Source: Girardia tigrina
Taxonomy: Eukaryota
DNA length: 64,000 nt
Assembly: GCA_001938485.1 (NCBI GenBank)
Contig: MQRK01168300.1
Location: forward strand, 2,433 to 66,432
Direction of reading: 5' to 3'
Part shown: positions 19,917 to 53,454 of the stretch, piece by piece
How positions within the stretch are numbered: the first letter of the stretch is position 1
Layout of the letters: every line of letters starts with the position of its first letter
The notes under the pieces: model-generated
What the model saw: the letters and a program-made list of their open reading frames with translations, nothing else
The model's database searches: none
Told to the model about the DNA's origin: nothing
Position numbers and translations under genes: made by a program

Positions 19917-20950
19917 ACTAATTAATAATCAATTCACCGGTATATAAATACAAAAATGATGATTGTGTAATCGATTGCATGAAATCTCGCTAATCAAAAA
20001 TTCTCAATAAGCTATTTGAGACTGCCGATTGAACATTGATTTTAGGGCAACGTGACCTAATTAACAATGCTTTACACGACACTCTCTCCCAATAGCTGTC
20101 AAAATTCTTACACAGAATTTTGAAATTATCAAAATTAACATCACATTTACATTTTTTCCTATGTTCTGCAATATTATACTTACTCTCTTTTCGACCATGT
20201 TCTTGAATTCATTTACAGAGATGACGGGCAGTCTCTCCAATGTATGTGGCATCGCATCCATTACATTTATATTCATAAACAATATCAGAACAAAGTGTTA
20301 AAGGTGTAATAGATTTATTACTGAACATATNNNNNNNNNNNNNNNNNNNNNNNNNNNNNNNNNNNNNNNNNNNNNNNNNNNNNNNNNNNNNNNNNNNNNN
20401 NNNNNNNNNNNNNNNNNNNNNNNNNNNNNAATTAAACAATATTTAGGCATATTATTCATATCTAATGATCCTACAATTTCTTTCTTAGATCCATCAGGAG
20501 AAGCCAAACTCTGATTTTTCGAAAAATCTTTTAAAAGTATTTTATCTAGTGTAGTTTCCTTTATTAATTTTTCTAGAAAAGATTTAGAATAACCATTCTT
20601 ATTTAACAACGAACTTAGTTTATTAACACTTTCTACAGATTTAACAAAAGTGGAAGACAACGACCAGGAGCGATAAATTAAACCTTTAATCATGTTTCTT
20701 TTATACTTAAGTTCACACAAACTATTTGGTGAAGTATATAAACCTGTATCAGTTTGCTTCCTATAAATTTCAGTCTCGTAACCTAGAGATTTTCTTTCAA
20801 CCAAAAGATCCAGAAAAGGTAAGACTCCATTCTTTTCATTTTCAACTGTAAAAGTAACATTTGAATGTAACGAATTCATAAAATTTAAAAATGGAAGTAC
20901 ATCAGCCTGATTTTAAAAAACTAGGAATATATCATCAACGTATCGTTTAT
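19879..20950 (-). mobile_element. 5'-truncated Penelope-like element (RT C-half plus GIY-YIG) with 3' hammerhead
   Basis: YKRYVDDIF, LPFLDLLV, YRKQTDTG, VYEYKCNGCDATYIGETARHL. Confidence 0.9.
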
Positions 20951-21703: not shown

Positions 21704-22954
21704 CTACAAAGGTGGAACTAGAACATCTTGCATGACCTTTTTATCGGAAGAATATAAAGGTATAGGAGTTATAATACTAAATTTCTCACTATTGTATAGG
21801 GCACTAAGCCCAGTCGACGGCCGGTCGCCTTGATAGCCCCATTTGTAAAGAGGATCTCTCATCGGCGGAAGTAACTCATGTAGAGGATTCGTAATTTCAT
21901 CGTCTACAACCTCACCGGAAGAATAGGCTAACATTTTCCCACAAATCATTTTACAAAAGTTACTCATACAACACATAATTACACGAATCATAAATAACAA
22001 CGCTACTACGACCTGATAGCAAATAGAATAAATATAAAATGATTCTTGGCAGAAAGGTATTTTTTGATTGTACGTCTTATTGTTTTGAACGATAACAATA
22101 TCATGGGACATTGCATCGTGACTCAAATGATTAATGAACACATTGGGTATCCACGCAAACCCTACGGTATACCAAACAATAGAGGCCGAATACAGTATCA
22201 AAAGAATACAAGAAACGAACACTTGCATATGGTCGGCATTGCTGTCGGGAACGACTGGATTTTCCGTCTGAAACCAAATCCAAGACCTGGACCATTCCAA
22301 GATCACGATAATCATATGAAAGCAACCGGACACGATTAGGAAAATATCCACCATATCACAAGTGTTCATATGGATTATTCCGACAGCCACAGCGGACATT
22401 TCGAATAAAATGATCAAAATACTGATAAAAGTCGAGATGAAAAACATGGCCCGTATCTTCTGATAGCCGTCATCGTTCGGTCGATTCATTGGATTCAGTA
22501 CGATCAATTCTTCGGCATTCGCTAACGGTTCCAAACTCAGATTCGAGAACCCGTCTGCGTTATTGCGAATTCCGAAACTGTTGCTCATATTCGAACCCGG
22601 ACTCGACAAAATCGGCAACGAGACTTGCAAAACCGATAACGAGTTGTGGCGCGGTTTTAATTTCGAAAAACGTGATTTTCGATTTTTGATTTTATCTCGA
22701 ATATTTTCCGACATTTGACCGAACGAATCGTTGATCATTCGATTTTGAGTGATCGTCTTAAAGGCGTCATTGATTCCCGGTCCCGTTAGAGATGGCTGAT
22801 AGAAGTTATTTGCATTTTGTGTTTGGTAATTTGATTTCGGTTGCGAGTCGCGTCTTCGGTGTGAGTTGTAACGGGCGGTCGGATTACTGCGCAGATTTGC
22901 GAAGACGTTTGAGGAATGAAAGTGGGTGTTTTCGTCGAATGTCACACCTTTCAT
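21704..22954 (-). CDS. Intronless 4-TM membrane protein, TMEM272-like, 416 aa
   Basis: Long clean ORF with four hydrophobic segments. Motifs GIIHMNTC..IFLIVSG, VWYTVGFAW and FCQESFYIYS resemble the TMEM272 pattern. AATAAA on the minus strand at 21616-21611. Confidence 0.8.
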   Translation of the reverse strand: MKGVTFDENTHFHSSNVFANLRSNPTARYNSHRRRDSQPKSNYQTQNANNFYQPSLTGPGINDAFKTITQNRMINDSFGQMSENIRDKIKNRKSRFSKLKPRHNSLSVLQVSLPILSSPGSNMSNSFGIRNNADGFSNLSLEPLANAEELIVLNPMNRPNDDGYQKIRAMFFISTFISILIILFEMSAVAVGIIHMNTCDMVDIFLIVSGCFHMIIVILEWSRSWIWFQTENPVVPDSNADHMQVFVSCILLILYSASIVWYTVGFAWIPNVFINHLSHDAMSHDIVIVQNNKTYNQKIPFCQESFYIYSICYQVVVALLFMIRVIMCCMSNFCKMICGKMLAYSSGEVVDDEITNPLHELLPPMRDPLYKWGYQGDRPSTGLSALYNSEKFSIITPIPLYSSDKKVMQDVLVPPL

Positions 22955-23656: not shown

Positions 23657-24038
23657 CCCCTGGCTCTCAAAACCGTGCTCCGTGGAACACTGGTGTTTTG
23701 CGAAAAAATCAAATATAGAATTAAAAATTGTTTTTAAAAGAAAAATCAGTACAATGTAAATTAATGGTGATGAAATCAATAAATGCCAATGACGATATTT
23801 GTAATATACTAGGCCGCGTGGTACAGTTAGCCATAGAAAATATTCTAGTCATCATTCACTTGATTTAAATTATAACAAATATGTATTTTTGGTTGGATAT
23901 CTTTCATGAAAATGTCGGATGTGATTCGTAAAGTTATTTGTGCGATTGCTTTAAATGTAATATATTATTGAAAGTGTTCCGCAGAAATAAATGTTAAAGT
24001 TTAGTGTACCTCGACTTCAAAAAGATTGAGAACCATGG
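23657..24038. mobile_element. hAT (Charlie-like) MITE remnant
   Basis: TGGCTCTCAAAACCGTGCTCCGTGGAACACTGG at one end; GTGTTCCGC...AAAAAGATTGAGAACCATGG at the other. Confidence 0.6.
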
Positions 24039-24769
24039 CTTTATACTGTAAATAGCAAGGTGTTAATGATTTTATAAGACATTGCGATACATAAATTTGA
24101 TAAATCTTCTATTCTAGAAGTTTTTACCGCTACGACGATCTATTAAGCGCAGATTTATGGAAACTAAGTATGATTTTTTAAAGGAAACTAAGTCAATCAT
24201 ATTTGTTATGGTACCCAATCCTTAATCATTCGAAAGTGAAGGTCATGGCTGTATATTAATATCAAGACACAAGAACCAACAGAAAGTTTATTTGTTTTTT
24301 AAATAATATAATAAAATAATATATTTGTATCATGTAATAACATTTTTTTACCTATTGTTATATATTTTAATAAAAAAATATCATTTAATAAAATATTTTT
24401 TTGCAACTAAAGAAATATTATAAAATGTTTATATTATATAATATATAACTCCTATTATATAAAACTTTTTTTCGTTAGTTAATAAAACGAACATATAATT
24501 TCTTTAAAAACAATATTTTATTATATAATTATGATAAATAGTAGTAAATCAAAAAGTCAACATTTCAAATAAACAAATATAATAAGAGAAACAATACTCA
24601 AAAATTGATAATGTTCATCATCAAAGCGAAGCTGCGAGATCAATGGATGATACATAGAGATGGCCAAACAACAAACCTTGATATGGGGGGTACATCAAAC
24701 GCCTAATAAAACAATCATATTTAACAATGAGATTAAACAAAATGATATCGAATAAAAAGAGTTTTGCTA

Positions 24770-27700
24770 TTATTCCGTAATTGTATTTGTGTTTGGAGAA
24801 TCCAATATTAAAGCGTTCTCTCCACTCGAGTCACAACATTCAATCGTCAGGGGTGAGCTGATGAGGAGCTTCTTCGACGACACCTCTTCACTGGCGTTAT
24901 TGTTGCTGGAAATGCGTTTCTTTTGATTATCTTCCTAAAAATATTTTTTAATTCACTTTGGTAATTATAAAGAATTAGAAAATCAAAATAGTTTTTAATT
25001 CATGCTTTATGCGGGCAGAACTCTACTTGGCCAACAGAATGTTTTCGTTGTCTTTTGTAGAAAGGAAATTACTATTACATTTTTTAATAAATTTGTAATG
25101 TTATTAGTAGCTATTAAAATCTTTTTTGTAGGGAAAATTTCATACAAAAAAATTTTTACAACTCCATTTTGCAATTAAATAATTACTAATAACATAATAA
25201 ATTTATTTTAAAGGAAGGAAGGAAAAAAACCAAAACATTTATATTTAATGCAGTTTACATATTTGTGGATAATCGTAAAACGATATTTTCCAAAATAAAT
25301 TAAATTAACCTTTTGAGATCAGTTGATTTGTTCAATCGATACGCTGTAGCAAAATACGACTACCCTGAAAATTTCAGCTCCACAGCATCATGGGGAGTAG
25401 GTTAAAATTGCAAAGTGAGGCTGGACACGGGAAAAGATCACACGAAATCAAGTTTATAGGAAAGAACAACAGAAAGAAAGGAATAAAGCATGGAAATTAA
25501 TCCTGTATTTATAATAATTTGATTCGCATAATGTAGTAAATGAATAATATATTATTTTTCCTTCACTTAATGTTAAATAGGAATAAAATGTATGTTGAGT
25601 CAAATTTATCATTTTAATGTCGAGGAAAAGAGATTGTAAAAAGAGGAGGAAGTCTCGCAGTTTGTCGACTCAATTAAATAACGTCTGTCGTCCCAGTTTA
25701 ATTGAGACATCCTTTGCCGTTTTTCTGTCTGCGTCGAGTCGCAAATCTTTTTGTCCAATTGTTTCATAACATCGGGCGTTTCTTTGTTTCACCCAATTGC
25801 GTCTCAGACGACATTCTTTAGTCTTGATAAATTAAAGAATATTTCTTTAATAAATATTGAAATATTTCTTGTTTTATTCTTTTTTTTACATCTCAATCAA
25901 AAGTTATGATAAACGTTCGTTGTGAGAATTATTATCATTTTTGTCTCTCTCTATCTAATTTTTTCTTTTTATTTGATTAATTAAAATAAAAATAAAAAAA
26001 TAATAACATAAATCATGAAAAGGAAATAAATAATAAAAATATTATTTATTTAATATGTTTTTAAATATAGCTTTTGTGGATTTCTAAGCAATATGAATAA
26101 ATAAATACATGTAAAAGAGAAAGAATGAAGAAAAAGAATTTAAGAAGGAGAAAAAAATGAAATATATAAATTAATAAATTTAGGTATTTTGGAAAATATA
26201 ATTTTTTTAAGAAATAGATTATTGCTCATTTTGGAAACTTATTTTCCATCATCATCAGTAATTATTAAATAAAATAAATAATTTATCAGTAAATATTATT
26301 TTTTAAATTTTTTATGAAGTCTCTTTAGGAAAAACCTGTGCCGTATAAGAGGTATGTAATTTTCAAAAAAGAATCTTGTTCTTCAAAACCAATCTCTGAT
26401 AGAAGCATTTTATTTACAAACTTCCTCCTCTTGAAATTCTTGTACGTAAGATGAATGAGAAATATCGAAAGAAATACAAAACGACAAAAGATACAGGTCT
26501 TTGCATAACACCACAGAGCTTTTCTGAGAAAAATTATAATGATGGTACGATGAAACGCTTAGTTCACAGAGTTTTGAATTTGTCTTCCATATTTGAAATC
26601 ACAGAACATGGTTCCAACATATTCCTAAAGGACACTCGAAAGATAACATGTACTTAAACAAGAAGATAGATCACAACATTAAGGCTAAATCGGACAAATT
26701 ATTTACACAAAAATTGTTTAAGAAAGAACTAAATGAAAAAAAACATTGAAGAGTACATATAAAAATTCAAAAATCAGTATTCCGGAAGGATTGTTTTCCG
26801 GAAGTTGTTTTAGTGACATCCAAAGGTCAAAACTTCCTCTAAAAGAAATCGAAAACGATTTGTATAGAATATAAACTAATCTGGTCAATAAATTTAATTG
26901 TAAAAGGTGCAAAAACTCGTATACTGGAGAGATTTCAGGGATCAACTGTGCAAGCAAGGCTGACATACTTCCACGAAGTGTCCCTGGGAAACTAGAATGG
27001 GTTCGAATCCGTCTCTAGGCTAAAGTGTCTGATAAGCTAACCGATATCTGCGCCGACAGAATATTGTAGTACCAGTGGGCTTCCAATCCACTTACAAAGC
27101 TCTATCTTCCTAATCTGAGTGTCATGGCTGTTGGGAGTAGTGACCCTGTAGTCGAGTGGTCGATTGCATCGTATAAACTCTTGATTTTAATCAGGATGGT
27201 GGTGTTGAGAAATCGGTTCGCCAGCTGAGGTTAATTATGTCAATTCCCAGTTGGGGGAGTGCCTTTTGAAGCCATAAGCGTCTCAGGCCTCCTAAAAAGC
27301 CTCAGACTTAATACCTTTATAGGATGTAAGAATCACACTGGAGAGATTAATCGTCATCTCGAAACCCGGATTAGTGAACATTCACAATCAAGTCGATCAA
27401 GTAAGGTTCTTAATCATTAGTTACATTGTAAAAATTGAATGTCTTCTATTTCAAAGGATGACTTTATTGTTTTACTTAAAGATTTCAATTTACACTATGA
27501 GCGGAAACTATTCATACAGCACTACAACCCAATAATAAACATTCAAAATGGACAAAGTAAAGCGGTTTCGAATATTACAATCTTTAATTAAAATAAAGAA
27601 ACAATTTGTCATTAACATCCAATAAAATCCTGAAATATTTAATATTTTATGATAAAATTTCCAATTAATTAACATTTTATTATCTTATTTATTACAATAT

Positions 27701-29940
27701 AATTGATGAAAATTATTATTACAATAGAAAATGAAATTACGAAACATGTACAATAATTTATATATATATATATATATATATATACAGGGTGGCCCAATGT
27801 GTACACAGCCTCTAATTTTTGCGAATCTATTTTTATAAAAAAATTCTGAGTTTCAAAATTTGACCTTTATTGCGCAAAAAGGTCAAGTTCTGGAATTTTT
27901 ACACCTCACATGTTATATATCAAAATACTCGTCTTGACGAGTAGATTTAGAATATNNNNNNNNNNNNNNNNNNNNNNNNNNNNNNNNNNNNNNNNNNNNN
28001 NNNNNAGGTCAAGTTCTGGAATTTTTACACCTCACATGTTATATATCAAAATACTCGTCTTGACGAGTAGATTTAGAATATGCAAAAATTAGAGGCTGCG
28101 TACCCATTGAGCCACCCTGTATATGTGTGTATTACTAATCAACGTGAGACATGTTTAGCTCACAATTTTTGATCATCTTCAGAAATTTTATTTGGGTTGT
28201 AATTTAATTGATTAATTGATTTGATTTACATATTATTATAAAAAATAATATTAAAATTAAATTTTATTATCTAATATTTATTATTGTTAAACCTAAATTT
28301 TATTAGTTTTATTTATAGATATTCGTTATTATGCCTGTTTTTCTTTCACCGAAAAATTTCAAATTATATATATATATATATATATACAGAAAAAACCGGT
28401 TTTATTCGATTGCATAATTTATAATTAACAGGAATTAATTCAAAAATATTTTTTGCGAATATTTATCAATCTGTTGGGAATTCAATTGAGCAACACGAGC
28501 GATGGATTAATTTTCTTTCTCAACAAACGAAAAAATGTGGAGATGAAGCATGGAAACATCCATCCCGAGATAAAATTGTGGCGTTGCATGAAAACGGGAA
28601 ATTGGCATGTCAAATTATCTTTCGATTTCATCCATTTAACTCTGTTTGGCAACGAACTGTTATTTTTATCTCCTCTTCTTTTCTCTCTCTCGTCCTCCTT
28701 CTCTCACACTCGACCCCCTCCCTCTATCTGATTAGAGATTGAATTAATGAGAAAATAATTATTGAATTTAGACTTAATAGATTTTCTTTTATTTTTCTTC
28801 AAACCAAAAAAAACAACAACAACATTGACAATTAATTTTTCATAATTTTCCTTTTCCGAAGATTTTCTCTGACATTTACCCCCATTTGATTTTAATTAAT
28901 TTACACATTTTCCCCGGTTTTTTTGCTTTCGTGCCAACTGAAACAAATCAATTATTTTTTTTGTTATTTTTTGCATAAGAGAAAATACTAAAAATAGAAA
29001 ATGTTTTTTGTCTTCAAAAGAAATTTATTCTTTAATTAATAAAAAAACCCCAAATCAAAATCAATTATTTTTTTTCACAATTTGTGTGGGTTGTTCTTGA
29101 AAAAATAAAAAAAATTATTTTAATTGTTAAATTTATATTTTAGAAAGAAAAAAATTTTAATGACAACAAAAAATTATCGGGATTGTTTTGTGATTTTAAA
29201 TTAATAAAATTATAATTATTTAATTATTAAATTTATATTTTAAAGAAAAATTAATTTAATGATAACAAAAATTATTGGTAATTTTTTGTGGTTTTAAATT
29301 ATTAAAATTAATATTATTTAATGATTAAATTTATATTTTAAAGAAAAAATAATTAAATAATAATAAAAAAATATCAAGAATTTTTTGTAATTTAAAATTA
29401 ATAAATTTATTTTTATAATGACAAAAATTATTGGTATTTTTTTGTGATTTTAAATTATTAAAATTATTATTATTTAATTGTGAAATTTAATTTTTACAGA
29501 AAAAAATAATGAAATGATAACAAAATATTATCGGGATTTTTTGTCATAATTTAAAATTAATTTAATATTTTTTTATTTTAAAATTTTTTTTAAATAATAT
29601 TTTTATAGAAATATTTGTAAAAAAAATGAAAGATCAAAACCGGGTTTTTTATTATTTTACTCTAAAAGAAAATCTATAAACGTTAAAAGATAAAATTCCC
29701 TCAACTCGAAAATAGTTCAGTGGAATATTTCAAAAACCCTCCCGAAATCGATTAGCCCCCCTCTTTGCCCTGCTTCTTTCTGGTTGAATAATTGATTAAT
29801 ATATTTTTGCTACAACAATTCCCAAACGTTTGTTTGGAATAAATTTGCATCATTTGCTACATGAGATATTTTGATGAAAAATTGATTTTTTCCCCTCTAA
29901 CGATAATGGATAAAACAATTTCTGTTATTGAATTAACAAA

Positions 29941-29992
<52 letters not shown>

Positions 29993-32235
29993 CTATTTTA
30001 TTTTTATTATTAGGGAAAAATTTTATTTACCATTTTTAAAAATTTTCTATAGAAATATATTTTGATTATTTTCTTTTATAAAATCAAAAAATGAAGTAAA
30101 AATAAATAATATTTTAAAAATATACCCATTTCATTGTTACCATATTTTCAGTATAATATAAAAAAGTTTAAAAAATATTATGTCAAATTCTTAGTGTGAA
30201 GATCATGGGTCTTATAAATAGCACTCGAGGATAACTATGAAGCATAGGAGAACCCGCGGTCGATTGTGAGATAGTCTTGTAGTTGTAGTTGTTGAAATAT
30301 AGAACATCCTGAAAAGCCTCTTGCTTAATACCTTTATATAATACGAAGGTAACATCAACTAGCCAGATATCGCTATACAAGGCAGAGCTGTAGTGAGGGC
30401 GGTGCGAGCGGTGCGGCCGCACCGGGCATATGGGCGCCAAAATCGCAAAATGACCAATTTTGACTGATCAGATCTCCTGTAGGCTAATCACTATATAATA
30501 ATAATTATAGTAGTCTTTTTTGTTTAATGTCAAAGCATCCATGAATTTATCCGAATAAATTGATGTTTTCTTATAGCTAGACGATGCAAGGCTTAAGCAT
30601 CAATGCTGCGTCATAGAGCATGTGAATACGAACGTCCAAAGTCAATTTAATTCTTTTAAGGCATAATTTGTAGTAGTGAATCTTTTACGCGCTGGGAGCG
30701 CCAGATTTGAACTTCGCACAGGGCGCAATTTTTCCTTACTACGGCTCTGATACAAGGTAATCAGGCATACTTCCAAGTAATGTTTGATTGAGTTTGATTC
30801 TACTTTCAGAAGAAAATATCTAAAAGATAGGCGAATACTGTACGTCAGCTGTAATTTTTAATATTCTGTGGGTCTTTTATCAACTCAAAAGTGAGGCCTA
30901 ACAGTGGTACTCGAGTTTGATGACACCTATAAAGAAATGGTGAACTCGTGATCGAAAATGGAAAAGTATGTCGAGGATTTTCGTTGAAATAGACGAGCTA
31001 GGTAATGCTATAAAATTATCAGTTTCCCAGAACCTCCGAAAAGGCCATAAAGTTAATACCTTCTTGCATGAGAGTATCAAATCAGATACAATTGTCCGCT
31101 ATGCATAGTCAGTTAGATATATTCACACGTAGGGTCCCTGGGAAACTAGATTGAGTAGTTATGGTGCTGATTAACTACATATGAGTTAGTGTACAGTTAT
31201 CTATGAGTATCTACTATGAATTTTCATTGAAAATATTGATATGAAGATGTCACATACGTCGCAGACCCCAGAAAGAGCATCTAGTTTAATATATGTAACT
31301 GGATGGAAGAATCACACAAAATACATTATAAATAATAGATAGACAGTTCTAATATAAATATAAACATAATGAACTATAAAGTTGTGTTCACACATTTTTA
31401 TAATAATACGGACAGATTACATAATGACGTATTTGACATTATGTAATTATATATTATAAAAATATTATTTCTAATTATTATTTTCTTAAGCACCTGATGA
31501 TGACGGTTTTATAATTGATTTTAATTGTTGAATAGTAAAAATATTTTTTTTAATCATACATTTATATTTTTCAACGAATCTATTCACCTTTTTTAAATTA
31601 TTTAAATTATTACTTCATTTATCAAAAATAAATTCTTATATGTGAATATATGAATCCCCTTGTACGCTCAGTAATGGTTCATGTTGATTTATTAACAATG
31701 CTTCAGAAATAAATTATCTTCATTCAATTATAAAAGACCAAACATTTGTCTTTTTTTCGAAACTTCTTATCATTTATTCATATTTAATTATATTTTATTT
31801 TTAAAAAAATCTTATTTTATCAATAATGACTAACTTTTTCAAAACGAACAGCTTTGAATAAAATATACAAGATCATTTTATAAATTTAAATAATTAAAAA
31901 ATAATGGTATAGTATTTTTGAAAACATAAAAATGCAATTAAAACAATTAACAAACAATTAATTTCGTCGGTAAAAAAAATTATGAATTTTAAATATGCTA
32001 ATATAGACGAGCGGCGATCACGCAATCGACAAATAATTGCGTCATATAAATAACTGTGTAACTCAATACGGTTGTCGATAGACCTGCCTTCACATTAATC
32101 TTAGGACCTAAAGATCTGATATATAGTGTTTCAAGCAGGCTAAAATTAAGTATTTCTTTATGACCTGACGATGACAATTACACCGTCGAAATTAATTGTC
32201 TAAAATAATAAAATATTTTCTTTAAATGTGTTTTT

Positions 32236-35200: not shown

Positions 35201-36766
35201 AGTTTGTAATACTGGCCGCGTGTGTTGCATATATTTTTATATTTAAAAAAATTGCGCATTGTAGGGTTAATGTTTCATTGTATTTTGTATCAAACTTGTT
35301 ACATACCGAAGTTGCGTGTTAAACTATCCTGGAAAGTGATATGTGCGATCCTTGAGCGTCTTAGCGACGTCGGTCGCATACGACACAAGTACGTATCTAG
35401 TTCTATATGGATCATATTACTTGTATTACATTGTTAAACATGTCATGTAAAAAAAACTATGTTCTTTTTTTTAGTGTTCAATAAATTGTCTAAATTCTTC
35501 GGTTGTTCTCCTCTTGACGTGCGTCATTTTGCGTTTGAATTACGTACTTAAAATATATTTTTAAAACTAACTTTCCAAATAAACAAATTAACACCCTTTA
35601 TCAATTATCAGAAAAGCTTTAAAATTAAAGATAATAATTACTTAATATTTTAGTGGAGAGAAACAAATTATTACAATATATAAATAAGATTACCGTTTTG
35701 GGGGTAGTTCACTGACACTGGAACAAAACCTCTTTTTGATCTCGTCCAAATAGTCGTTTAGGCTTTCCTCTTCCAATTTCGTTCTCGTACAATCTTCACT
35801 CAAACGTAAATACCAGCGCCAATTACTCGAATCAAAACCCCAATGACAGACTTCAGTTTCCGACCACTTCATTCCGAATTCCTGATGGGTGTGACCAACA
35901 AAATCCGCTGGTGACATCATTCGGCCACATTCCAAGCATTCAATACACTGAGCATTCGAGTGAGTATACTTCAACGGGAATATTATGCCTTTCTGTTGTC
36001 CAAAACAGTCATGGGTAACTCTAATCTGATGGTAAGCTGCCGAATCCAGATTGATTTTGTCTGATACAGACGTGTTGTTATTTCCATCCGCGGGATTAAG
36101 ATCAACGTTGATGCTGTTGAAGAACTTCAGCAATCTTTCGGCATTTGATTGGGAAATCAAACCACAGCAGCTAACCTGTTTCGGCAAGATGTTATGCTTA
36201 TGAAGCACTCCCAATCTCTCGTCGTCGCATTCGGTACAAGTTATTCCCATTGAATTGATGGCTTCATTTATGTCACTAATACTAAAAAGAAACTGTTGTT
36301 ATTTTGTAAAAAGATAATCATTTTACTCGACGTTCTTCAATAAGTTGAGGATTTGCGGTAAGCACAGTAATTTTTCACCTTCATTATGGAAACTTGCGAT
36401 ATATGTTTTGTTGAGCAAAGTATATGTAAAGTTTTCTGTAGTCGAACTGTTGGGAGATTTAGCCCGGTTGTCTGATTCCAGTTCCTCCAAACCATTAATC
36501 GACTCGTTGGTTTTAATACCATCATTTTCCGGTTTTTGATACGGTCGAAATGGACTTGTTTTACTACCTATGTCGGTTGAAAGATTGCCATTAGCTGGAC
36601 ATCCATAAAGGTATCTCATCAACATTGTTGTGGGAAAAATCGTCTTTTTTGCTGCTAAAAGTTTCTGGGAATATAACTGTTGAAAATTTTTTATCATTTC
36701 TCGATCATAACCACTGATCGGACTTAACCAATCTAACCCTTTCAAAGGTTCCGGTTTTAAAAGCAT
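24770..36766 (-). CDS. ski: Ski/SnoN family co-repressor. Exons 36766-36327, 36281-35694, 33803-33751, 33291-33119, 33032-32889, 24934-24770 (520 aa)
   Basis: Ski_Sno domain (EKLLCLPQIL; CGLISQSNAERL) and SAND-like Smad4-binding domain (HDCFG...CIECLECGRMMSPADFVGHTH...CHWGFDSSNWRWYL), followed by a coiled coil. All introns are GT-AG with consistent phases (1563 nt total). Exons 1-2 are firm; exons 3-6 are hand-inferred. Confidence 0.88.
26935..27336 (+). mobile_element. Short non-coding retroelement headed by an HDV-like ribozyme
   Basis: Perfect 12-bp TSD ACTGGAGAGATT (26923-26934 and 27337-27348). No meaningful ORF. Related copies at 30190-31315. Confidence 0.85.
26936..27029 (+). ncRNA. 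HDV-like self-cleaving ribozyme
   Basis: P1 CAGGGAU/GUCCCUG; P2 GACAU/GUGUC; P3 ACU/AGU; L3 UCCACGA; P1.1 CC/GG; P4 CUAGA..AUGGGU-UCGA-AUCCGU..UCUAG; J4/2 G-CUAA with predicted catalytic C27020. Confidence 0.85.
27785..28119. mobile_element. Tc1/mariner MITE (length inflated by gap-flank duplication)
   Basis: TIRs CAGGGTGGCCCAATG...CAGCCTCTAATTTTTGC with TA flanks. Confidence 0.8.
29100..29560. repeat. Degenerate AT-rich minisatellite (~110-120 bp units)
   Basis: Recurrent ATGA(C/T)AACAAAAA..TTAT(C/T)GG..TTTTGTG.TTTTAAATTA units. Confidence 0.6.
29941..29990. repeat. (ATT)n microsatellite
   Basis: Seen directly. Confidence 0.95.
30190..31315 (+). mobile_element. Decayed head-to-tail trimer of the HDV-ribozyme element family
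   Basis: Three unit ends resemble CCTAAAAAGCCTCAGACTTAATACC. Ribozyme remnants at 30364/30760-30785 (GGCATACTTCCAAGTAATGT) and 31083-31150 (GTCCCTGGGAAACTAGA). Confidence 0.65.
30383..30749. mobile_element. hAT-type MITE, 367 bp
   Basis: TIRs CAGAGCTGTAGTGAGG / CCTTACTACGGCTCTG and a perfect 8-bp TSD ATACAAGG. Confidence 0.9.
32162..32200 (+). ncRNA. Minimal hammerhead ribozyme motif within inverted-repeat element 31921..32242
   Basis: GAC-CUGACGA-U-GAC/AAUUACACC/GUC-GAA-AUUAAU-U-GUC with palindromic stem III. Truncated mirror copy at ~31955-31971. Confidence 0.72.
34314..34692 (+). other. Structured GC-richer insert with an RTE-like 5'UTR segment
   Basis: CCAGGTTGAGGGGATG...TTTAGCATTTCTCTCCCGTAACAAA resembles RTE 5'UTRs. 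Multiple hairpins. Confidence 0.35.
35026..35266. mobile_element. piggyBac-type MITE
   Basis: TTAA|CCCTACAATGCGC ... GCGCATTGTAGGG|TTAA. Confidence 0.9.
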
Positions 36767-37199
36767 TTTTTGGTCAATTATAAATTTTGAATTAAAGAAA
36801 AAAAAGAAATGAAAGAAAAAGATTAAATTAATATTAAACTGGGGAAAATTATTATTCTCGTAATATATTTCAGGAAAAATTATTTTCTTGAAAGAAAATT
36901 TTGCGATCTTTATTGTGATTGGAGGGAGAAGAAAAACGGGAAATGGGAATGAGAAAACATCGACCCAATGGAATTTAAGGAAGGATTCCTTCATACAAAC
37001 TTTTCCCCCGAAACACACAATTTTGATTTGAGGTTCTCCATTTTCCGTTGCCAGTTTTATCTTTTGAATGTCTGAACTTGCCTGGATTTGAATTGCCAAA
37101 TCGATACTCTCCATCCACCATCGATGATTCGCTTCTCTTCCTCCTTTCCTTTTTTTCCTTATAAAACAAACAAAAAAATAGAAAAAAAATTAGAATTTT

Positions 37200-43642: not shown

Positions 43643-44305
43643 TGAATTAACAACAATTTCGCTGTCTTATATATAGCAAATTGATGATTATGCAAACATC
43701 TTGCGTGATAACTAATTAAATATTTTCAACAAATTGGAAGAGAGACTTGTTTGTACATTAATGGACGGATTAAGTGATTTAATCAATAATGCTTCACAAG
43801 TAACTCTTTCCCAATAATTTTTAAAATTACTGCACAACATTTTAAAATTAGTTGTTTTCACATCCAATTTACAACCCTTCATGTGTCCAGCAATATTACT
43901 CCCACTACCCAATCGTCCATGCTCCTGAATCCGTTTACAGAGATGACGAGACGTCTCGTCAATGTATGTAGCGTTGTACCCATTAGATGAAAATTGATAA
44001 ACCAGATCTGAACATAAACTCACAGGAGTGCGAGATTTATTGCTGAATATACTTTGAATTTTGTAAGATTTAGAAAAGATTTTTAAATTCAAATTTTTAC
44101 TATCGATTAATTTTAAAATAGTCGATTTAAATTCTTTGTAACCTTCTGAATAAGGAACGATTAGCGTATATCCAATATTAAAATTTTCATTAGATAATTT
44201 ATCGGGTTTTAATTCGTCTTTAACCTCATGTTCTTTATTCATTAATTTATCTATCGTCTCATTAGTTAATTCCTCTAAAAATGATTTCGAATAGCCATTT
44301 TTTTC
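43606..44305 (-). mobile_element. 5'-truncated Penelope-like element (GIY-YIG) between (TA)n tracts
   Basis: LVYQFSSNGYNATYIDETSRHLCKRIQEH...EALLIKSLNPSIN. Confidence 0.88.
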
Positions 44306-45672
44306 TATATATATATATATATAATTTTGGGTTTGTTGTCTAAGTGAATTGTAGTTTGGGGGGTTTTTTGAAGATTTATAAAGAATAAAGTATTGAGATG
44401 ATTTTCGTTTTTCGTTCTCTGAATCCACTGCAACAAAAATGAGCGGACAAGAAAAATGTGAAGATAAAAGCCAAACAAAGACAAAGACGAAGGTCGTATC
44501 CCTCGGAAATTGTAAAAGGGAAACTACGCCGAAAAAAATGGCTCTGGGACGCCACTTTATCTGGCTCCAGTGTTAAAGTATTTATCGACCAAGGTTTTGG
44601 AGTTTTCTAGCAATGCCACCAGAGACAATAAAAGACGAGAATGTAAAACGGTCCTCATTAGGGCCAAAAATTGTGATTGGTTTCATTTTAAATAGAACGT
44701 CTTAAAGTGTTTGGTCCTTTGAAAAAATGTAAAAGTTACATTTTTCTAGTAAAATTAAAATTTGAATTTTCTTGTTGAGTTTCTTTATTGTGTTTAAATT
44801 TTAAAATGTTATTTTTGGTCATACAAATAATTAAATAATTTATTATTTTTAATTTTTATTAAATAAATAAAGTATAAATTGTAAAAATTATGATTAAAAA
44901 AAATTAGATAACCCCACCGGATCGGTCCCAAGTCAAAAGAGACCGTTATTCCTAATTCTACCCAACCTTCTCGATTCATTTACAAAGAAAGATAACTTTA
45001 AAACTGTATTCAAAATTCTTCACGAGACAGTAAAGAATCAATGCCCCAAGATCGCTTCAATTATCCAAGTGGATAAAATAAACCTGGTGCAATTTCTAAG
45101 TAGTCCAGAAAGTAACCCTACCAAACGTCGCTTCAGAATCACTAGAAGCTTATCAACAACCTCTACTACTTTACTGAAGATATCAAAACATTGAAAACGT
45201 GGAACTAAGCTGGCTGAATAGAATGATTAGAACATAGTCAAAACGAAATACTTAGTGATGTTGAAGATGCTGATGATTCACATGTAGACGACAACAGCTC
45301 AATCTGCTCACACCACTCTCAAATCTCATTAACCAGAACTCATCGAGGCAAAAGACTAAGAGGTCCAAAATGCGCACAATGATGGGTTGGCACTGTTGGG
45401 TTCTTGATCAAAATTATAATTCATTAACACCAAAACTTTATTACATCTCTGAAAACAAAAATTTCATAAAGTTATTCTTCCAAATAACTTTTAAAATAAT
45501 TGCAAAACAATTAAAACAATACAATTAAAATTCAATTATTTATGAAAATAACTTTTTTAAAATTAATTAAGATATTTTTTTAGTTATAACTGTTTTAGAA
45601 AACTTTTGATTTTAAATATTTCCTTATTTTAGATATTATTTTTAAAAATTAATAATTTCAAAAATTTAAAGA

Positions 45673-46705: not shown

Positions 46706-49178
46706 ATTACTTTTTTAAATTAATAATTTTTTAAAATAAGATTTTTCAATTACTGTTATTTTAGTCATGTAATAATTTTTGTTTAAATTTAATTTAATAA
46801 ATTTCAGATTAATAAATTTCATTCATATAAAAGAAAATTATAAATGTAATTTGAAATAAATTTTGAATTATTTCAAAAATATTTTTATTTTAAAGACATT
46901 TAAAGGATTTTCCTATAATAAGTTAATATTTAGAAAATATTTCTGTACAGTTGTTAATTTTTACTACTTCCATCGTCTTGTAATTTTTATATATATATAT
47001 ATATATATACATAAAAGCATCATAAAAATATTTGTTATTCAAACCGAGTTTTCCATTACATTTCGTCACTTTTTATGTAAAATAACTGTAAAATTAAACT
47101 TCCAAGAAAATGTTTATATAAAAGATTTCATAGATAAAAGCCTTTTACAAAAAATATTTATAAACGAAAATTTATTAATATTAATTATTTAAATGAATAT
47201 AATTTAGCCATATATAATATATATTGATGAATATATTACATTAAATATCAAATAAACTGATTGTGAGAAGTGTTTGTAACATCATTTCATAAATCATTTT
47301 TTCTTTACTCAATTTACATATTTATTATAAACAATTTTCAAACAAATTTTTAAACTATTTTCTTAATTAATAATTCATCCGCCATCTCTGTCTCAAATAA
47401 TTTTTCATTTATTTAAAATTTCAATCAAATTAAAATAATATTTCATTTTTAAACTTTAAAATTTTAAAATAAAAAACAAGCCTTTTATAATAGTTTTTTT
47501 ATAATTTTGTTTTTTAAGTAAAATATTATATGCTGTTTTTCATTTTGCGTTTTTTAAAAACATTTTTTTAATATTTTTACTATTTTTAAAATTTTTGAAA
47601 ATACGTTATATTTAATATTTTAAATATTTAATTTAATTTTTTTAATATTTTAAATATTTAATGTTTTAATCGTATCCCTAAATTAATTCAAAATTTGAAA
47701 AATAAATTTTTAGAAATATTTAAAAAATGTTTTAATAGAATTCAAATTATTTTAAAAATACTTTTTCTGTTATCTATGTTGATCCACTCCTTTTTCTACT
47801 AATATAATATTTTAATTAAAATAAATTTATAAAGAATAAGTTTAAATTTAAAATCTTTATGTATTATTCTAATTACTAAACTTTGTAATTTGATTTTCAT
47901 TCAAAATAATTTTTATTTTAAAACTAAAATTAACTACCGACTCATTCAGATAAAAGAGAGTAATTATTTTAACTGTTCAAAATTATCATAAAAACCAATA
48001 AAATGTACTTATTTTTATGATTAGTTAAGAAAATTGAATAAATATCCCATTTGAACAAATATTTAGCTATTTTTCCTGTTTTAATAATCATTTCACGGAT
48101 CTGAAATATTCAATTAGTTTGTTGTATATTTCTTTATAACATAAAGAAAGACTTTATTAAAAAAATCTTTTTTAACTTAATCTTATTAATAATAACATAT
48201 ATTTAAATTAATTATCATTATTTTAAGCAAGCTTTACAATATTTCAAAATATGAAATATTAAAATACATTTAATTGTACTTAATCAAATTGAAATTTTAT
48301 TTATTTTTTTTAAAACCTTTTAAAAATTTTTAATTTTAAAGTTTTTTCCTGTTATTGTAATAGGAAAATTTATTTCAATTACCAATTTTTGTTTAAATTA
48401 AAAAATTTGTTAAATTTAAAAATAATTTTTTATTTAAAACTAAATATCTTTTTTGTAAAAATTTCATACTCCGTATTTTGAATTTTAAATTGTATACATC
48501 TCAATTTGTCAGCAAAATTAAATTCACTTAACTTCACGTAATAATGAACTTTTTTTTTATTTTTGAAAATAAACAATTTTATTTGGACATTTTTCCTGGA
48601 AAATTTACTATTATTTTTTATTTTATTTTAAAACTGAATTTAATCTTATACAGACTCAAAAGAATACCCGTTAATCAACTCAGCTTCAGAGTAATTGGAA
48701 ATAGATATTAAGCTTAAATAAATAAAAATATTATTAAATTTGTTTTCCAAATATATAAAAAATGTTATAAAATATTATAAAATAATTATTATTCAACTAA
48801 ACTAAAAAATATTTCTTAATAATTTAAAATGTCTTTAAATTTTTAGTTATTTTAAATTGTCTTAATTTTGAAATTTTTCAAATAGAATATAAATTATGTC
48901 TTTCAACGATATATATTTTAATAATTTCATTTCGAATTTTTATTTGCAAATTTTATTTTAATTTTTATTTTAAAATTTATTTAAATAAATCAAAAAATTA
49001 TCAAAATTTGTTTAAATATTTGAATATTTTAATTATTTATATTTCTGTAATGAATATTATATCGAAATTTAAACTATTTTTACAAGAATTTTCTTTTTCT
49101 GCATATTTAAATATCGATAATTTTATAATCACAAAAGAAAACAGATTAATAAATTTTCAAAAAGTTATTAAAAAAGTA

Positions 49179-51858
49179 ATGTCGATGTTTATGAACGATG
49201 AAGAAAATTACTCAAGTTTCGTCAATGTTGATTTATCTGATTCACCATTTCATAAAGTTTTTCATCCAACAAAAAGTGAACAGTTTTATTTCTCTCTCAA
49301 TTCTTTTTTCAACATAGATATTTTCAGACAACATTGCAAATTTGTATTTTTAATCAACATTTATAATAAATTGTTTTCTGTCGATAATAAATATCCTAGT
49401 GAATGGATCAATGAATTGAGAAGTCAGTGTCATGCAGTTGGAACACAGTTGGCCAATTGTGAGGATCAATCACTCATACTGCCGTATTTATATATGAACT
49501 TACTGAGTTCGAATTGGTTGGGAGAATCTGTAAATAAATTATTTATTCAAGATCAAAACACAATCTATATGTTTCATTTACTCTTCTTAAATTTTTCACA
49601 CATCTTTCAACATAGCAATTTATCCTCCAGACATTTAAAGAATACCCTTTCTCTATATACAGATCTAATTAAATATCGAGAAGTACGACTTTTTCTTATA
49701 AATTCTTCATTTTTAAAAAGTGATCCGAGTAATTTATTCAAGGAGAAACCAATTGAAAATATTTCTCATCTTGAATCTATATATAATATAATTGGATTTC
49801 CTGAAGGAGAATCCACAATTACGAATCACCAAACTACTTCTCATTCTTCAAATGACTTTGTTAACTTATGTTCTGAATTGTGGGATTTACAAAAAAATAT
49901 CATGTTGATATTCCTCCGTTCCGAAGCTAAACAAATAACTGTAGACTTTTTGTATCAATATTTAAATAATCATATGAAAATTGTTGGTGATATTAATTAT
50001 GATCATGAAATAAAAAGAAATGGTTTCATGATTAATTTGAATGCATTTTTGCAAAATGTAGCATCAATGGTTTGCTTGGATAATATAGACGAAGATTATT
50101 TAAATCGGGAAGAATATCCATGCAACCCAAGGGAGGGTATCGGTAGACATTTGTTTGAAGAAGTAAGAATTGCTGCTGACAAGGACGATTTATTATGTTA
50201 CTCAATAGATTTATCGAATGATCCGTCGTATATTAAACTGAATTTAGAAACTCAATTATTTTACTGGAGTTTTTTGAGTTATAAAATGTCAATTTTACCA
50301 GCTTGGCGTACATACAAAACAATCGATATGAACTTGAAAAATATGGAAGAAGAAAAATGGCATTTAGAACAACACATTATGTATAATAATTTACAACATG
50401 ATTCACAAACAATGGGAATAATTTATGAAATGGAACAAAATATCAAAAATATGAAACTCATGAAAATTAGTTACGAAAATGTTTTATTGAGTGACGATTT
50501 TACAGAACGAACTTTGGAATTTCTCGTGACGAAAAGCAAATATATTTTAAGATACCAAAATGATGAAAGACATTTCAAATATTTATTACAATTATTATTT
50601 GAAAATATTTCCGACTCTTTATTGTTATTATTGGAAAATTGTCCACGAAAAATCGCGATGATTTTGAACTCATTTAAGTTCGAATCGATTGTTGAACTCG
50701 TCGTTCTCGTAATTAATAAGTCAAACTGCTTTACATCGCCGTATTTAGTACGCAAATTTGTAAAAATATTTGAAATTTTTGTTTGTAATGTCGGTAATAA
50801 ACTAATGGACCATTACAACTCAATATTCGTTGAAACATCTCATTTGTATGTGGGAATAGATTTTGTCAATAACTTGATCCAATATTTCAATGCCATTGAG
50901 AAAATGGAGTCAGGCATTTACACAAATGATAAATACAATACGAGATGTGCCATTTGTAACATTCTTCTCATTCTGTGTTTGGAGGCTCCATCTATCATTA
51001 AACTTGACGATTATTCCTTAACTAAATTTCTTAACTTTTCCTTCGATGATATAACACATTTGATGGAAAAAACTTTTGAAAATATAAAGAAAGTGCAAAA
51101 TATTCAATATACAGTTAAATCAATAAGCGGTTTGTCGAAAGAACAACATTATAACTTATCTGAAGAAATGTGCTTTTACCAACAAAATATTCCCGCATAC
51201 ATAAATAATGTTACATATTATTGTCGTTTCCTCGAGCTATTATCTAAAAATAATCAAAAACATTTTTTTAAAAAAGAAATAATTGATAAATGTGTCACAA
51301 TGTTTCATTATGTGTTTTGTGAAATCTCCGGTCCAAATAAAAAGAATTTATACATCGAAAATACCGAACAATTTAACTGGAGACCGAGATTGATATTTTC
51401 CATGTTCTTAGACATTTATTTAAATCTTAGTTCCGATCCTTTTCATAAAGCAATATCAAAAGAAGAAATATATTTTACAGATGAAAATTTTTATCATTTT
51501 TATGATTTTAATATGAAGAAGGACGATCAACTAAGAAAGAGATGCTTGAAATTGAAAGTTGTTTTAAATAAATCAAGTTATTTCAGAAACAAATATGAAA
51601 GAAGACAAAGCTGCCTGCATGATGCTCCAGATAAATTTATTTATTATTTCGGGTACAATAATGTCTGATCCGGTAAAGATTCCTCATTCAAATGTCATAA
51701 TCGACAATAAAGTTATTAAACGACATTTACTGACGAATAATTTTGATCCGTTTAGTCGTTTACCTTTAAAAGTTGAAGACTTGATTCCACAACGGGATTT
51801 AAAATCCGAAATTAAATCGTGGAAAAGAAGAAAATATAAAGTATATAATATTCATTAA
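49179..51858 (+). CDS. Intronless Ufd2/UBE4B-like U-box E4 ubiquitin ligase, frameshifted at ~51642
   Basis: Ufd2-core motifs NGFMINL, SPYLVRKFV, DKYNTR and SGPNKKNL...DIYLNL. The U-box DAPDKF|..TIMSDPV...IKRHLL...DPFSRLPL continues in the +1 frame. AATAAA at ~51886. Confidence 0.8.
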
Positions 51859-52048: not shown

Positions 52049-53020
52049 TTAGGGAATTAAAGTGAATCCTATTGCCCGTTTAACTCTAAACCACCAAGAC
52101 TTTTTTGACAGAATGTTACCTTTATTATTACCTGTGGTCAACCAAGTCAGAGCCGAAGACAAATCAGCGAAGTCCACATTTAACCGAGAAGCAGCAGTGA
52201 AACAAAGGGAATCAGAGATTATTTGTTTTGTATTAGAGCATTTTGAGTTCAGCAGGCGAAAAGCTTGCACAATACTCTGTATGCTGTATTCGTCTCGAAG
52301 ATCATTCCAGCCCGCTCCCCCGTTATCAGTAGAAGAGTACAGGTAACAGACTTCCGAATTTTTAGGTAGATTTAACATTCGACGTAAAGCAGATCGCAGT
52401 TTACTGCTAACATTAGATTGATTATTGTTTTTACTGGTTTTAAAAGATAAAAACGTTGTTTTAATTTCTCTGGTCCGAAGTGAATAAATAAGTCATGGAT
52501 ATAAAATAAATTTAAATGCCTTTAACTTTTGCCAATTAGGTAAATCTGAGTCGAGAATTTTATTTGTGACAGAGACTAGTTTTTTAAGAGTGTCATATTG
52601 TGTTTGATCATAGTTAATTCCTATTGGAACACCTAAATACATATAGAATTCTTTCGGTTTTAATTTCTTTATTGGTGTCTCTTTTATATAAACTTCAGTA
52701 TTTTCTTTCTCTCATAGAATTGTAAATATGCACATTTATCAGGGCGGTATACAATGCCTGATTTTTCTGTGACAAAAACTGCTTTATTAATCATACTTTG
52801 TAAGTCATGATTTTTATTTACTATAAGCGCAGTATCATCCGCATATACCAACACTTGTACAGGAGAATTTCCTAACATGAATGGGGAGATATTCATTGAA
52901 CTTACTGCTTCTAGAACCGGATTAATCACTAGGGAGAACAAAGTCATAGAAAGAGGGCATCCTTGCCGAACACCCTTTGTGACTTTGATATTGGGGGTTA
53001 CAAGCGAGTCGCAGCTGTAA
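52049..53020 (-). mobile_element. R2-group (NeSL/Utopia-like) reverse transcriptase remnant
   Basis: KGVRQGCPLSMTLF, VYADD, YLGVPIG, YLYSSTDNGGAG. Confidence 0.85.
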
Positions 53021-53454
53021 TATTAACTATTATCTGTATATAATAGTTGAATTATATTATAATTTATATGTATTTGTTGTTAAAATTAATAAATATTTAC
53101 AAATATTTATATTTTTCATAGATGGGATATTTTTGATAAATAAATATAAAATTATATTTTTTATATAAATAAATAAAATATTTAACAAGGTTTGAGTAAA
53201 TAAAAGAAGAAAGAGAGACAGATATTTAAAATCAAATAATAAATAATAAATTCAAATTAAAATAAAATTTAGGCTAATTATTCTAGTTATCTAATTTTAG
53301 TAAATAGTGAATTGGAAGCTTCGAAAACAAAATTTATTATAAATTATTTATTTAATTTAAATTTTGATAATGGAAATGAATTTAACATACTGAAAAATAT
53401 TTCTTGTGAATTTTTGCATTAATATACATGAATACTACAGGAAGAGAATTTAAA

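Follow-up and report, generated by a model that had tools for sequence, protein, structure and literature searches.

What is the protein-free insert that breaks a Penelope-like gene in the 64,000-nucleotide stretch of Girardia tigrina contig MQRK01168300.1 analysed here (the window), and what moved it there? As the initial annotation had described, the insert is bounded by a perfect 12-bp direct repeat, ACTGGAGAGATT, present at 26923..26934 and again at 27337..27348. These target-site duplications (TSDs) enclose 402 bp, namely one extra T (26935) followed by a 401-nt element on the forward strand (26936..27336, window coordinates throughout). The element belongs to a non-autonomous retroelement family, referred to below as family B, that starts with a hepatitis delta virus (HDV)-like ribozyme fold (26936..27029, +). 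Its tail (27276..27336, +) is homologous to the end of the 3' untranslated region (UTR) of a co-resident long interspersed nuclear element (LINE) encoding an apurinic/apyrimidinic endonuclease (APE), a reverse transcriptase (RT) and C2H2 fingers. We consider it quite probable that the insert is a bipartite, ribozyme-headed non-coding element whose tail is recognised in trans by this LINE, which would copy it by target-primed reverse transcription.

The initial description of the insert as devoid of coding capacity and of a poly(A) tail was borne out: the longest ATG-started open reading frame (ORF) in the element is 34 aa long, and no poly(A) tail was found in its 401 nt. An Rfam search of window 24000-31000 at E<=1 gave no match. 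To place the insert in a family, we searched the source genome (1.43 Gb, AT-rich, in a fragmented assembly with duplicate contigs), yielding 2767 first-look candidates, 40 of which were scored and found to be 83-89% identical over nearly the full length. Copies begin with CAGGGATC and finish with RRATCAC, so that the ribozyme-initiated non-autonomous family anticipated in the initial annotation does exist. We then examined 116 3' ends, which reduced to 78 unique flanks and 33 callable TSDs, with lengths of 7 bp (2 cases), 8 (3), 9 (5), 10 (11), 11 (9), 12 (1), 14 (1) and 16 (1). The mode is 10 bp within a range of 7-16, 25 of the 33 fall at 9-11 bp, and the sole 12-bp case is the window copy itself. 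The 12-bp TSD that had been read as a sign of kinship with L1Tc/ingi elements is therefore real in this copy and not a trait of the family, and the argument built on it fails. The lack of an ORF, the fixed ends and the TSDs are those of bipartite non-autonomous LINE derivatives of the SIDE/RIME/NARTc type. Between head and tail lies a middle body (27030..27275, +) with several hairpins; it has matches in sister short families, and its central 234 nt match none of the LINE loci tested. Family B therefore did not arise simply by internal deletion of the LINEs seen, and this part may have an unsampled parent LINE.

Among the RT loci of the genome we found a single-ORF LINE with an HDV-like head, whose relatives encode the APE, RT and C2H2 fingers. 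The first 30 RT loci (mostly of long terminal repeat type, four RTE-like) were tried as partners and discarded, having no ends in common with the element. The 5' UTRs of the LINE carry the same ribozyme core with a P1 of their own (GGGATAC/GTATCCT) and different P2 and P3, the core common to LINE and short-element heads being CCTGG(G)AACTAG...CTAGGCTAAA. At the other end, the LINE termini (…AAGAGCCTTAGGCTCAATACC…GGAGGCCCAC) align with those of the element (…AAAAGCCTCAGACTTAATACC…AAGAATCAC) over a shared tail of ~60 nt. Identity is modest, and the similarity of head and tail exceeded all 1000 shuffles in 4/4 comparisons; the window tail scored 52 against the LINE 3' UTR, a value reached by 0/1000 shuffles. 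Homology at both the 5' and the 3' end to a LINE of the same genome is what defines a bipartite derivative. The autonomous LINE sharing both ends, for which the initial annotation had proposed a search, is thus present, also uses the same targets as the short family (see below), and is the likely mobiliser.

To assign this LINE to a clade, we examined its ORF and its nearest relatives. It has a single APE-RT ORF, no ORF1, and no RNase H in Pfam scans of two of its loci (L096 and L102), as is the rule in the RTE group. Its RT motif reads GVRQGC…YADD, the first part of which we take to be of RTE type, and not GxPQGS. Over its RT region it shares 30% identity with an RTE-like RT encoded in the same genome (E 5e-42), and the nearest named protein matches include lepidopteran proteins with a C-terminal finger, presumably of BovB type. 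In a quick RT tree with long branches, no labelled references and no outgroup, the LINE forms its own supported lineage. We infer from these motifs that it belongs to the RTE group. The same mechanism could instead be driven by a member of the Ingi/Vingi group, a label that we had first adopted and that was dropped for want of RNase H and in view of the GVRQGC motif. Vingi elements are described as having a single ORF without RNase H (PMC13708176), a description that would suit an APE-RT ORF with C-terminal C2H2 fingers that lacks both RNase H and poly(A); they also give rise to internally deleted derivatives (PMC5786205), and the title of a reference credits L1Tc with C2H2 fingers. Against such a driver, in addition to the RT motif, the RT identity and the lepidopteran matches, stand TSDs mostly of 9-11 bp and not 12, and Ingi proper needs the RNase H that L096 and L102 lack. 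We therefore regard an Ingi/Vingi driver as unlikely, and the link to L1Tc/ingi drawn in the initial annotation is not upheld.

The host of the window copy is a decayed Penelope-like element (26420..27590, +), split between the Tyr and Ile codons of the YIG part of its GIY-YIG motif. The flanks of the insert are 67-83% identical to empty Penelope-type loci, which read through in frame as CHGCQNSY/IGETNRHL (the slash marks the junction here and below). Three of four empty loci tested match the Pfam GIY-YIG family weakly (E 0.0045-0.058, below the cut-off), and the window's own Penelope pieces were not recognised in a Pfam scan. The initial annotation had thus located the insertion correctly and missed that this site is a recurrent target. 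The Tyr/Ile boundary accounts for 13 of the 78 unique short-element 3' flanks, and for 9 of 59 in the set that was not fished with a Penelope flank. The terminal 14-mer of the LINE occurs exactly 2697 times in the genome, and LINE-tail junctions at the Penelope codon number 948 filled against 2299 empty sites (both with <=1 mismatch), i.e. about 29% filled, with duplicate contigs present in both counts. Upstream of the junction, the window copy has a degenerate form of the Penelope half-site GGTGTCAAAACTCGTAC (26906..26922, +), which has the same length, ends and spacing as the half-site GGTGTCAGAAAAGTTAC in 28S ribosomal DNA (rDNA), apparently through a coincidence of codons in the C-x-x-x-Y/I-G stretch.

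Could these filled sites be a few copies multiplied by Penelope activity, segmental duplication or redundancy of the assembly, and not the outcome of targeting? In favour of such amplification, the assembly is fragmented, with near-identical neighbouring contigs, and the 5' junction could not be resolved in 16/20 of the filled sites retrieved. In the remaining 4/20, by contrast, the inserts are 408, 464, 611 and 3727 nt long; different passengers (at least 3 LINE tail types and the short family) sit at the same codon boundary, and their TSDs vary as well (none, 9, 10, 11 or 12 bp). The differing lengths and tail types therefore favour independent insertions. An insert that breaks GIY-YIG should also hinder the copying of Penelope itself, and we regard multiplication of a few copies as very improbable.

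We next describe the ribozyme fold at the head of the element. All helices proposed in the initial annotation could be placed with a descriptor: P1 at 26936-42/26980-86, P2 at 26962-66/27025-29, P3 at 26967-69/26977-79, L3 at 26970-76, P1.1 with its GG at 26987-88, P4 at 26992-27018 and the catalytic C at 27020, with predicted cleavage 5' of C26936. Run over both strands of the window, the HDV double-pseudoknot descriptor gave a single match, 26936-27029; on a Markov-1 null, matches with a perfect P1 occurred at 0 per Mb, and those whose P1 had a single mismatch at 3-4 per Mb. Folding of the whole 402 nt gave a minimum free energy z of -1.2 with a method blind to pseudoknots. Applied to 25 close copies, RNAalifold did not recover the pseudoknot and returned no net covariation term, the copies being too alike. 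For covariation we used 12 ribozyme heads from sister short families (alignment A3), which are related sequences in an alignment chosen by us; LINE heads, with a J4/2 one base longer, were left out. In this alignment 95.7% of cells are paired, compared with 14-53% in slid controls, and changes on both sides are seen in 8 of the 24 pairs (2 of P1, 4 of P2, 1 of P3 and 1 of P1.1, CC/GG to CU/AG). The covariation score was reached by 0/500 shuffles, a count that is not a probability as the rows are related and hand-chosen. The covariation in P1, P2 and P3 that had been proposed as a check is thus found in sister families, and extends to P1.1.

The nested double pseudoknot of P1, P2, P3, P1.1 and P4 and the conserved L3 U/C/G and J4/2 catalytic C followed by A are those of HDV-like ribozymes. 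The usual G at +1, in a G-U wobble, is found in the LINE head and not in family B, which has C+1:G; exceptions at +1 exist among HDV-like ribozymes, e.g. in L1Tc. The catalytic C is conserved in 23/25 aligned copies, as is the L3 G. The window copy has an A at the last L3 base, where 23/25 family copies have T, and a P2 shortened relative to the family. It is an aged insertion whose ribozyme carries two substitutions. The fold is structurally conserved, and self-cleavage is predicted from it.

The J1/2 stretch (window 26943-26961; family CTGTGC.AGCCAG) is conserved across the short families though usually free to vary, possibly as an internal promoter or a protein-binding site, and bears a weak resemblance to an A box. 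Together with a B-box-like GTTCGAATC in the P4 stem-loop (27001..27009, +), this could suggest a tRNA-type short interspersed nuclear element (SINE) transcribed by RNA polymerase III, in which the HDV-like pairing would be incidental. No tRNA (ARAGORN) and no A-box match were found in the element, however, and its TTTT runs at 27185 and 27264 would terminate polymerase III transcripts early; moreover, short-P4 sister families that lack the B box retain the fold, and the compensatory changes affect four helices. A SINE of this kind is accordingly most improbable; an extra internal promoter of the type of Pr77 in L1Tc may still be present.

The second recurrent target lies in rDNA, on which the initial annotation was silent: the insertion that it reported is real, and it missed that the same family also stacks at one 28S site. 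We found the LINE and several short families at a single 28S nucleotide, GTTAC/CACAGGGAT. At one locus (L103), 28S sequence ending in …GGTGTCAGAAAAGTTAC is followed by CACAGGGAT, a 265-nt short element (family A), the LINE (3.86 kb), a B-type element and a long non-coding element (family C), the units each being separated by CACAGGGAT; over ~400 nt the B-type element has 70% identity to L002/L005, two copies of the family. A similar stack is present at L127, and the flanks of both loci match LSU rRNA in Rfam. Of the 23 assembled matches to downstream 28S sequence, 22 are preceded by an element end, with 7 end types that include the LINE and a 5'-truncated family B copy (L143). The remaining one (L144) follows 18S-like sequence, which we take to be 18S, joined directly to the 28S target, apparently by an rDNA deletion. 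The upstream half-site has 38 genome matches; in the 28 loci inspected, 28S sequence follows it in a single case, and in three the contig ends there. Upstream half-sites rarely continue into 28S, and intact rDNA is therefore missing from the assembly or collapsed in it; no intact rDNA unit turned up, and a single diverged empty site (L319) was seen. The site of the Anopheles elements RT1/RT2 reportedly lies further 3' in 28S, with a 17-bp TSD.

The first 7 nt of the element, CAGGGAT, which form the 5' strand of P1 (26936..26942, +), exactly match the 7 nt that close the 28S TSD CACAGGGAT and, on this identity, were likely captured from the 28S target. This is a simpler explanation of the C+1:G start than the L1Tc/ingi trait invoked in the initial annotation. 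The TSD also supplies P1 bases in sister heads (the last T in L150, 6/7 pairs in L298), in parallel with a model for R2 whereby the cleavage site is displaced by target duplications (PMC3774820). LIN9_SM, a NeSL-related planarian element, uses the same 28S stretch (AAAA/GTTACCACAGGGAT) 5 nt upstream of the present nick (PMC4640811 S6 Fig.) and the genome holds pieces that, by their motifs, resemble LINEs of its restriction-like endonuclease lineage, but mobilisation of the short family by an element of this (NeSL/LIN9-like) type is barely credible, as LIN9_SM is antisense to 28S, ends in a T-run and shows no TSD in the figure (PMC4640811), whereas the present elements are in sense, end in CAC, have a TSD of 9 bp and possess the same tail and junctions as the APE LINE.

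Most often, the 28S site is occupied by family C (11/23; L124:108-1212, L127, L103:5646-6276). This family is non-coding, measures 1.1 kb and has an HDV-like head, a further ribozyme-like core in its interior (ACTTCCACGAAGTGTCCC) and a GGATTCAC end. Other families with different heads and ends were seen at the site (L294, L297, L298, L302, L308, L310; L132, L133, L145, L148, L150), some of which may be other LINEs. An exact copy of the 28S target (GGTGTCAGAAAAGTTACCACAGGGAT) is also carried by a ~215-bp AT-rich tandem repeat (L295, L296, L301, L306, L314-L316, L320), and is empty in all copies seen.

To characterise targets outside these two sites, we started from 31 dispersed insertions, one of which was missed, one dropped for an N and two dropped as possibly Penelope-like, leaving 27. 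The TSD is preceded by TAC (T in 23, A in 26 and C in 25), G is found in 12/27 at -16 and again in 12/27 at -14 (in flanks with a G content of 21.6%). Agreement with the 28S half-site is highest when unshifted (4.85, compared with 2.15-3.85 at other shifts). We also scanned contigs from metagenomes for a terminal CAC preceding the 28S site, which gave a single match (L292); scans of viral contigs found nothing. This contig (54% GC) encodes a 1394-aa APE-RT-C2H2 ORF, which shares 25% identity with the LINE along about 1090 aa, and abuts the same 28S nucleotide, its 28S flank differing at 8/99 bases. Its closest matches are P0012 and P0013, the latter placed within the supported lineage of the LINE by the quick tree. 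Such a distant relative at the same nucleotide suggests that the 28S target is old.

A trans-mobilised, ribozyme-headed element would then work as follows. Read-through transcription from rDNA or a neighbouring locus would provide the RNA, and self-cleavage of the ribozyme at +1 would give it a defined 5' end, the fold and its covariation being as described above. The LINE protein would bind the common ~60-nt tail, for which we have homology, and nick its preferred site, roughly GTGTNARAANNNTTAC/, with the C2H2 fingers or the APE domain recognising the target. Priming would involve the AC common to the target's TAC and the terminal CAC of the tail, and leave the 7-12 bp TSDs seen at the junctions. 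The best-matching targets would be the one 28S nucleotide and the C-x-x-x-Y/I-G of the Penelope GIY-YIG nuclease, in which the window copy sits. Successive insertions would stack head to tail because the -CAC/-TAC ends recreate part of the target.

We also lean, with little more than even confidence, towards a broader view, namely that an old and overlooked lineage of the RTE group, equipped with C-terminal C2H2 fingers, recognises a site of ~17 bp next to the peptidyl-transferase-centre sequence in 28S, which would make it a target-preferring APE retrotransposon outside R1/Tx1. It would support at least 5 ribozyme-headed non-coding families that borrow 28S bases for P1, and would have knocked out roughly 3/10 of the Penelope GIY-YIG genes that can be recognised in one family, owing to the resemblance of their codons to the site. 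Several points weigh against the mechanism proposed above. No LINE with near-identical ends was found, the likeness of head and tail being modest, and the middle body is unmatched among the tested LINE loci. Most copies are dispersed, which amounts to preference and not strict specificity; 45 of the 78 unique 3' flanks have no called TSD, and L002/L004 have none. The upstream motif is weak, and several TSD boundaries were set by eye, so that the TAC counts are partly circular. Counts are inflated by the fragmented assembly and duplicate contigs, and, with no intact rDNA unit recovered, those at 28S show preference and not occupancy of a functional array. The covariation counts rest on related sequences in an alignment of our choosing with LINE rows excluded, the RTE label on a quick, long-branched tree without a labelled reference, and the metagenome match is one contig without a 5' junction whose CAC end was demanded by the search pattern.

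Taken alone, the window insert is an ordinary addition to the known SIDE/NARTc-like elements; the system of LINE, 28S and Penelope goes beyond them. R2 SIDEs, together with SIDEs of hybrid R2/R1 make-up, are likewise trans-moved non-coding elements in 28S that join a 5' HDV-like ribozyme to a LINE 3' end (PMC3414825), whereas the likely driver here is a single-ORF APE LINE and not R2/R1, the 28S site is another one, and family B has many dispersed copies and a large middle body that is not LINE-derived. NARTc, which carries the ribozyme of L1Tc (PMC3185411), and RIME, with L1Tc/ingi, have a ribozyme at +1 in the LINE as well as in its short partner, and an APE driver with C2H2 fingers (PMC3185411, PMC4035085, PMC6765202). 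The present system differs in having no RNase H, an RTE-type RT motif, no poly(A), TSDs mostly of 9-11 bp where those of L1Tc are usually 12 bp (PMC6765202), and strong recurrent single-nucleotide targets. RTE is among the clades with a 5' ribozyme, and bipartite non-autonomous RTE elements have ends related to the 5' and 3' ends of a LINE (PMC5786205); family B has no microsatellite or poly(A) tail, the full-length LINE relatives have three C2H2 fingers, and we found no report for RTE of so marked a target preference. LIN9_SM differs from the present elements in its lineage, orientation, junction, T-tail and lack of a TSD, as detailed above. Target-specific APE elements are placed mainly in the Tx1 and R1 clades (PMC4640811); Tx1L, which targets another transposon, Tx1D (PMC1919474), and the rDNA elements of the R1 clade are APE LINEs with sequence-specific targets in a transposon or 28S (PMC1919474, PMC4640811), but have two ORFs where the present LINE has one. 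RTE and Vingi elements used for gene writing insert at dispersed positions (PMC13708176). In the full-text literature, with Repbase and Dfam lying outside the search, we found no report of an RTE-like LINE that uses this 28S site or the GIY-YIG stretch of Penelope. With its single ORF, a defined rDNA preference, a ~60-nt tail and natural passengers of 265-1100 nt, such a compact APE LINE would make it possible to test directly if C-terminal zinc fingers can guide an APE retrotransposon to its target. It would also present one transposon family disabling another through target mimicry, and a natural series for a ribozyme gaining its 5' strand from a target.

Short elements stacked head-to-tail, or behind a LINE tail, were also seen outside rDNA (L029/L030, L068, L078, L207, L237), including inside the Penelope site. 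Elsewhere in the window, a degenerate sister element at 31070-31325 has the same ribozyme core (79-83% over about 50 nt against family heads) and a GGATGGAAGAATCAC end, and lies directly behind another decayed relative at about 30745-31070; a lone 3' tail of the same element system is found at 30304-30342 (91% over 35 nt). Two further Penelope-like fragments and a decayed fragment of a non-LTR RT lie at 20298-20912 (-), 43712-44572 (-) and 52049-53022 (-). Host genes in the window include a long ORF with a Ufd2P core domain (48828-51668, +), a Ski/Sno-family gene (35690-37189, -) and, at 21704-22954 (-), an ORF of 415 aa that contains hydrophobic stretches and has no Pfam match.

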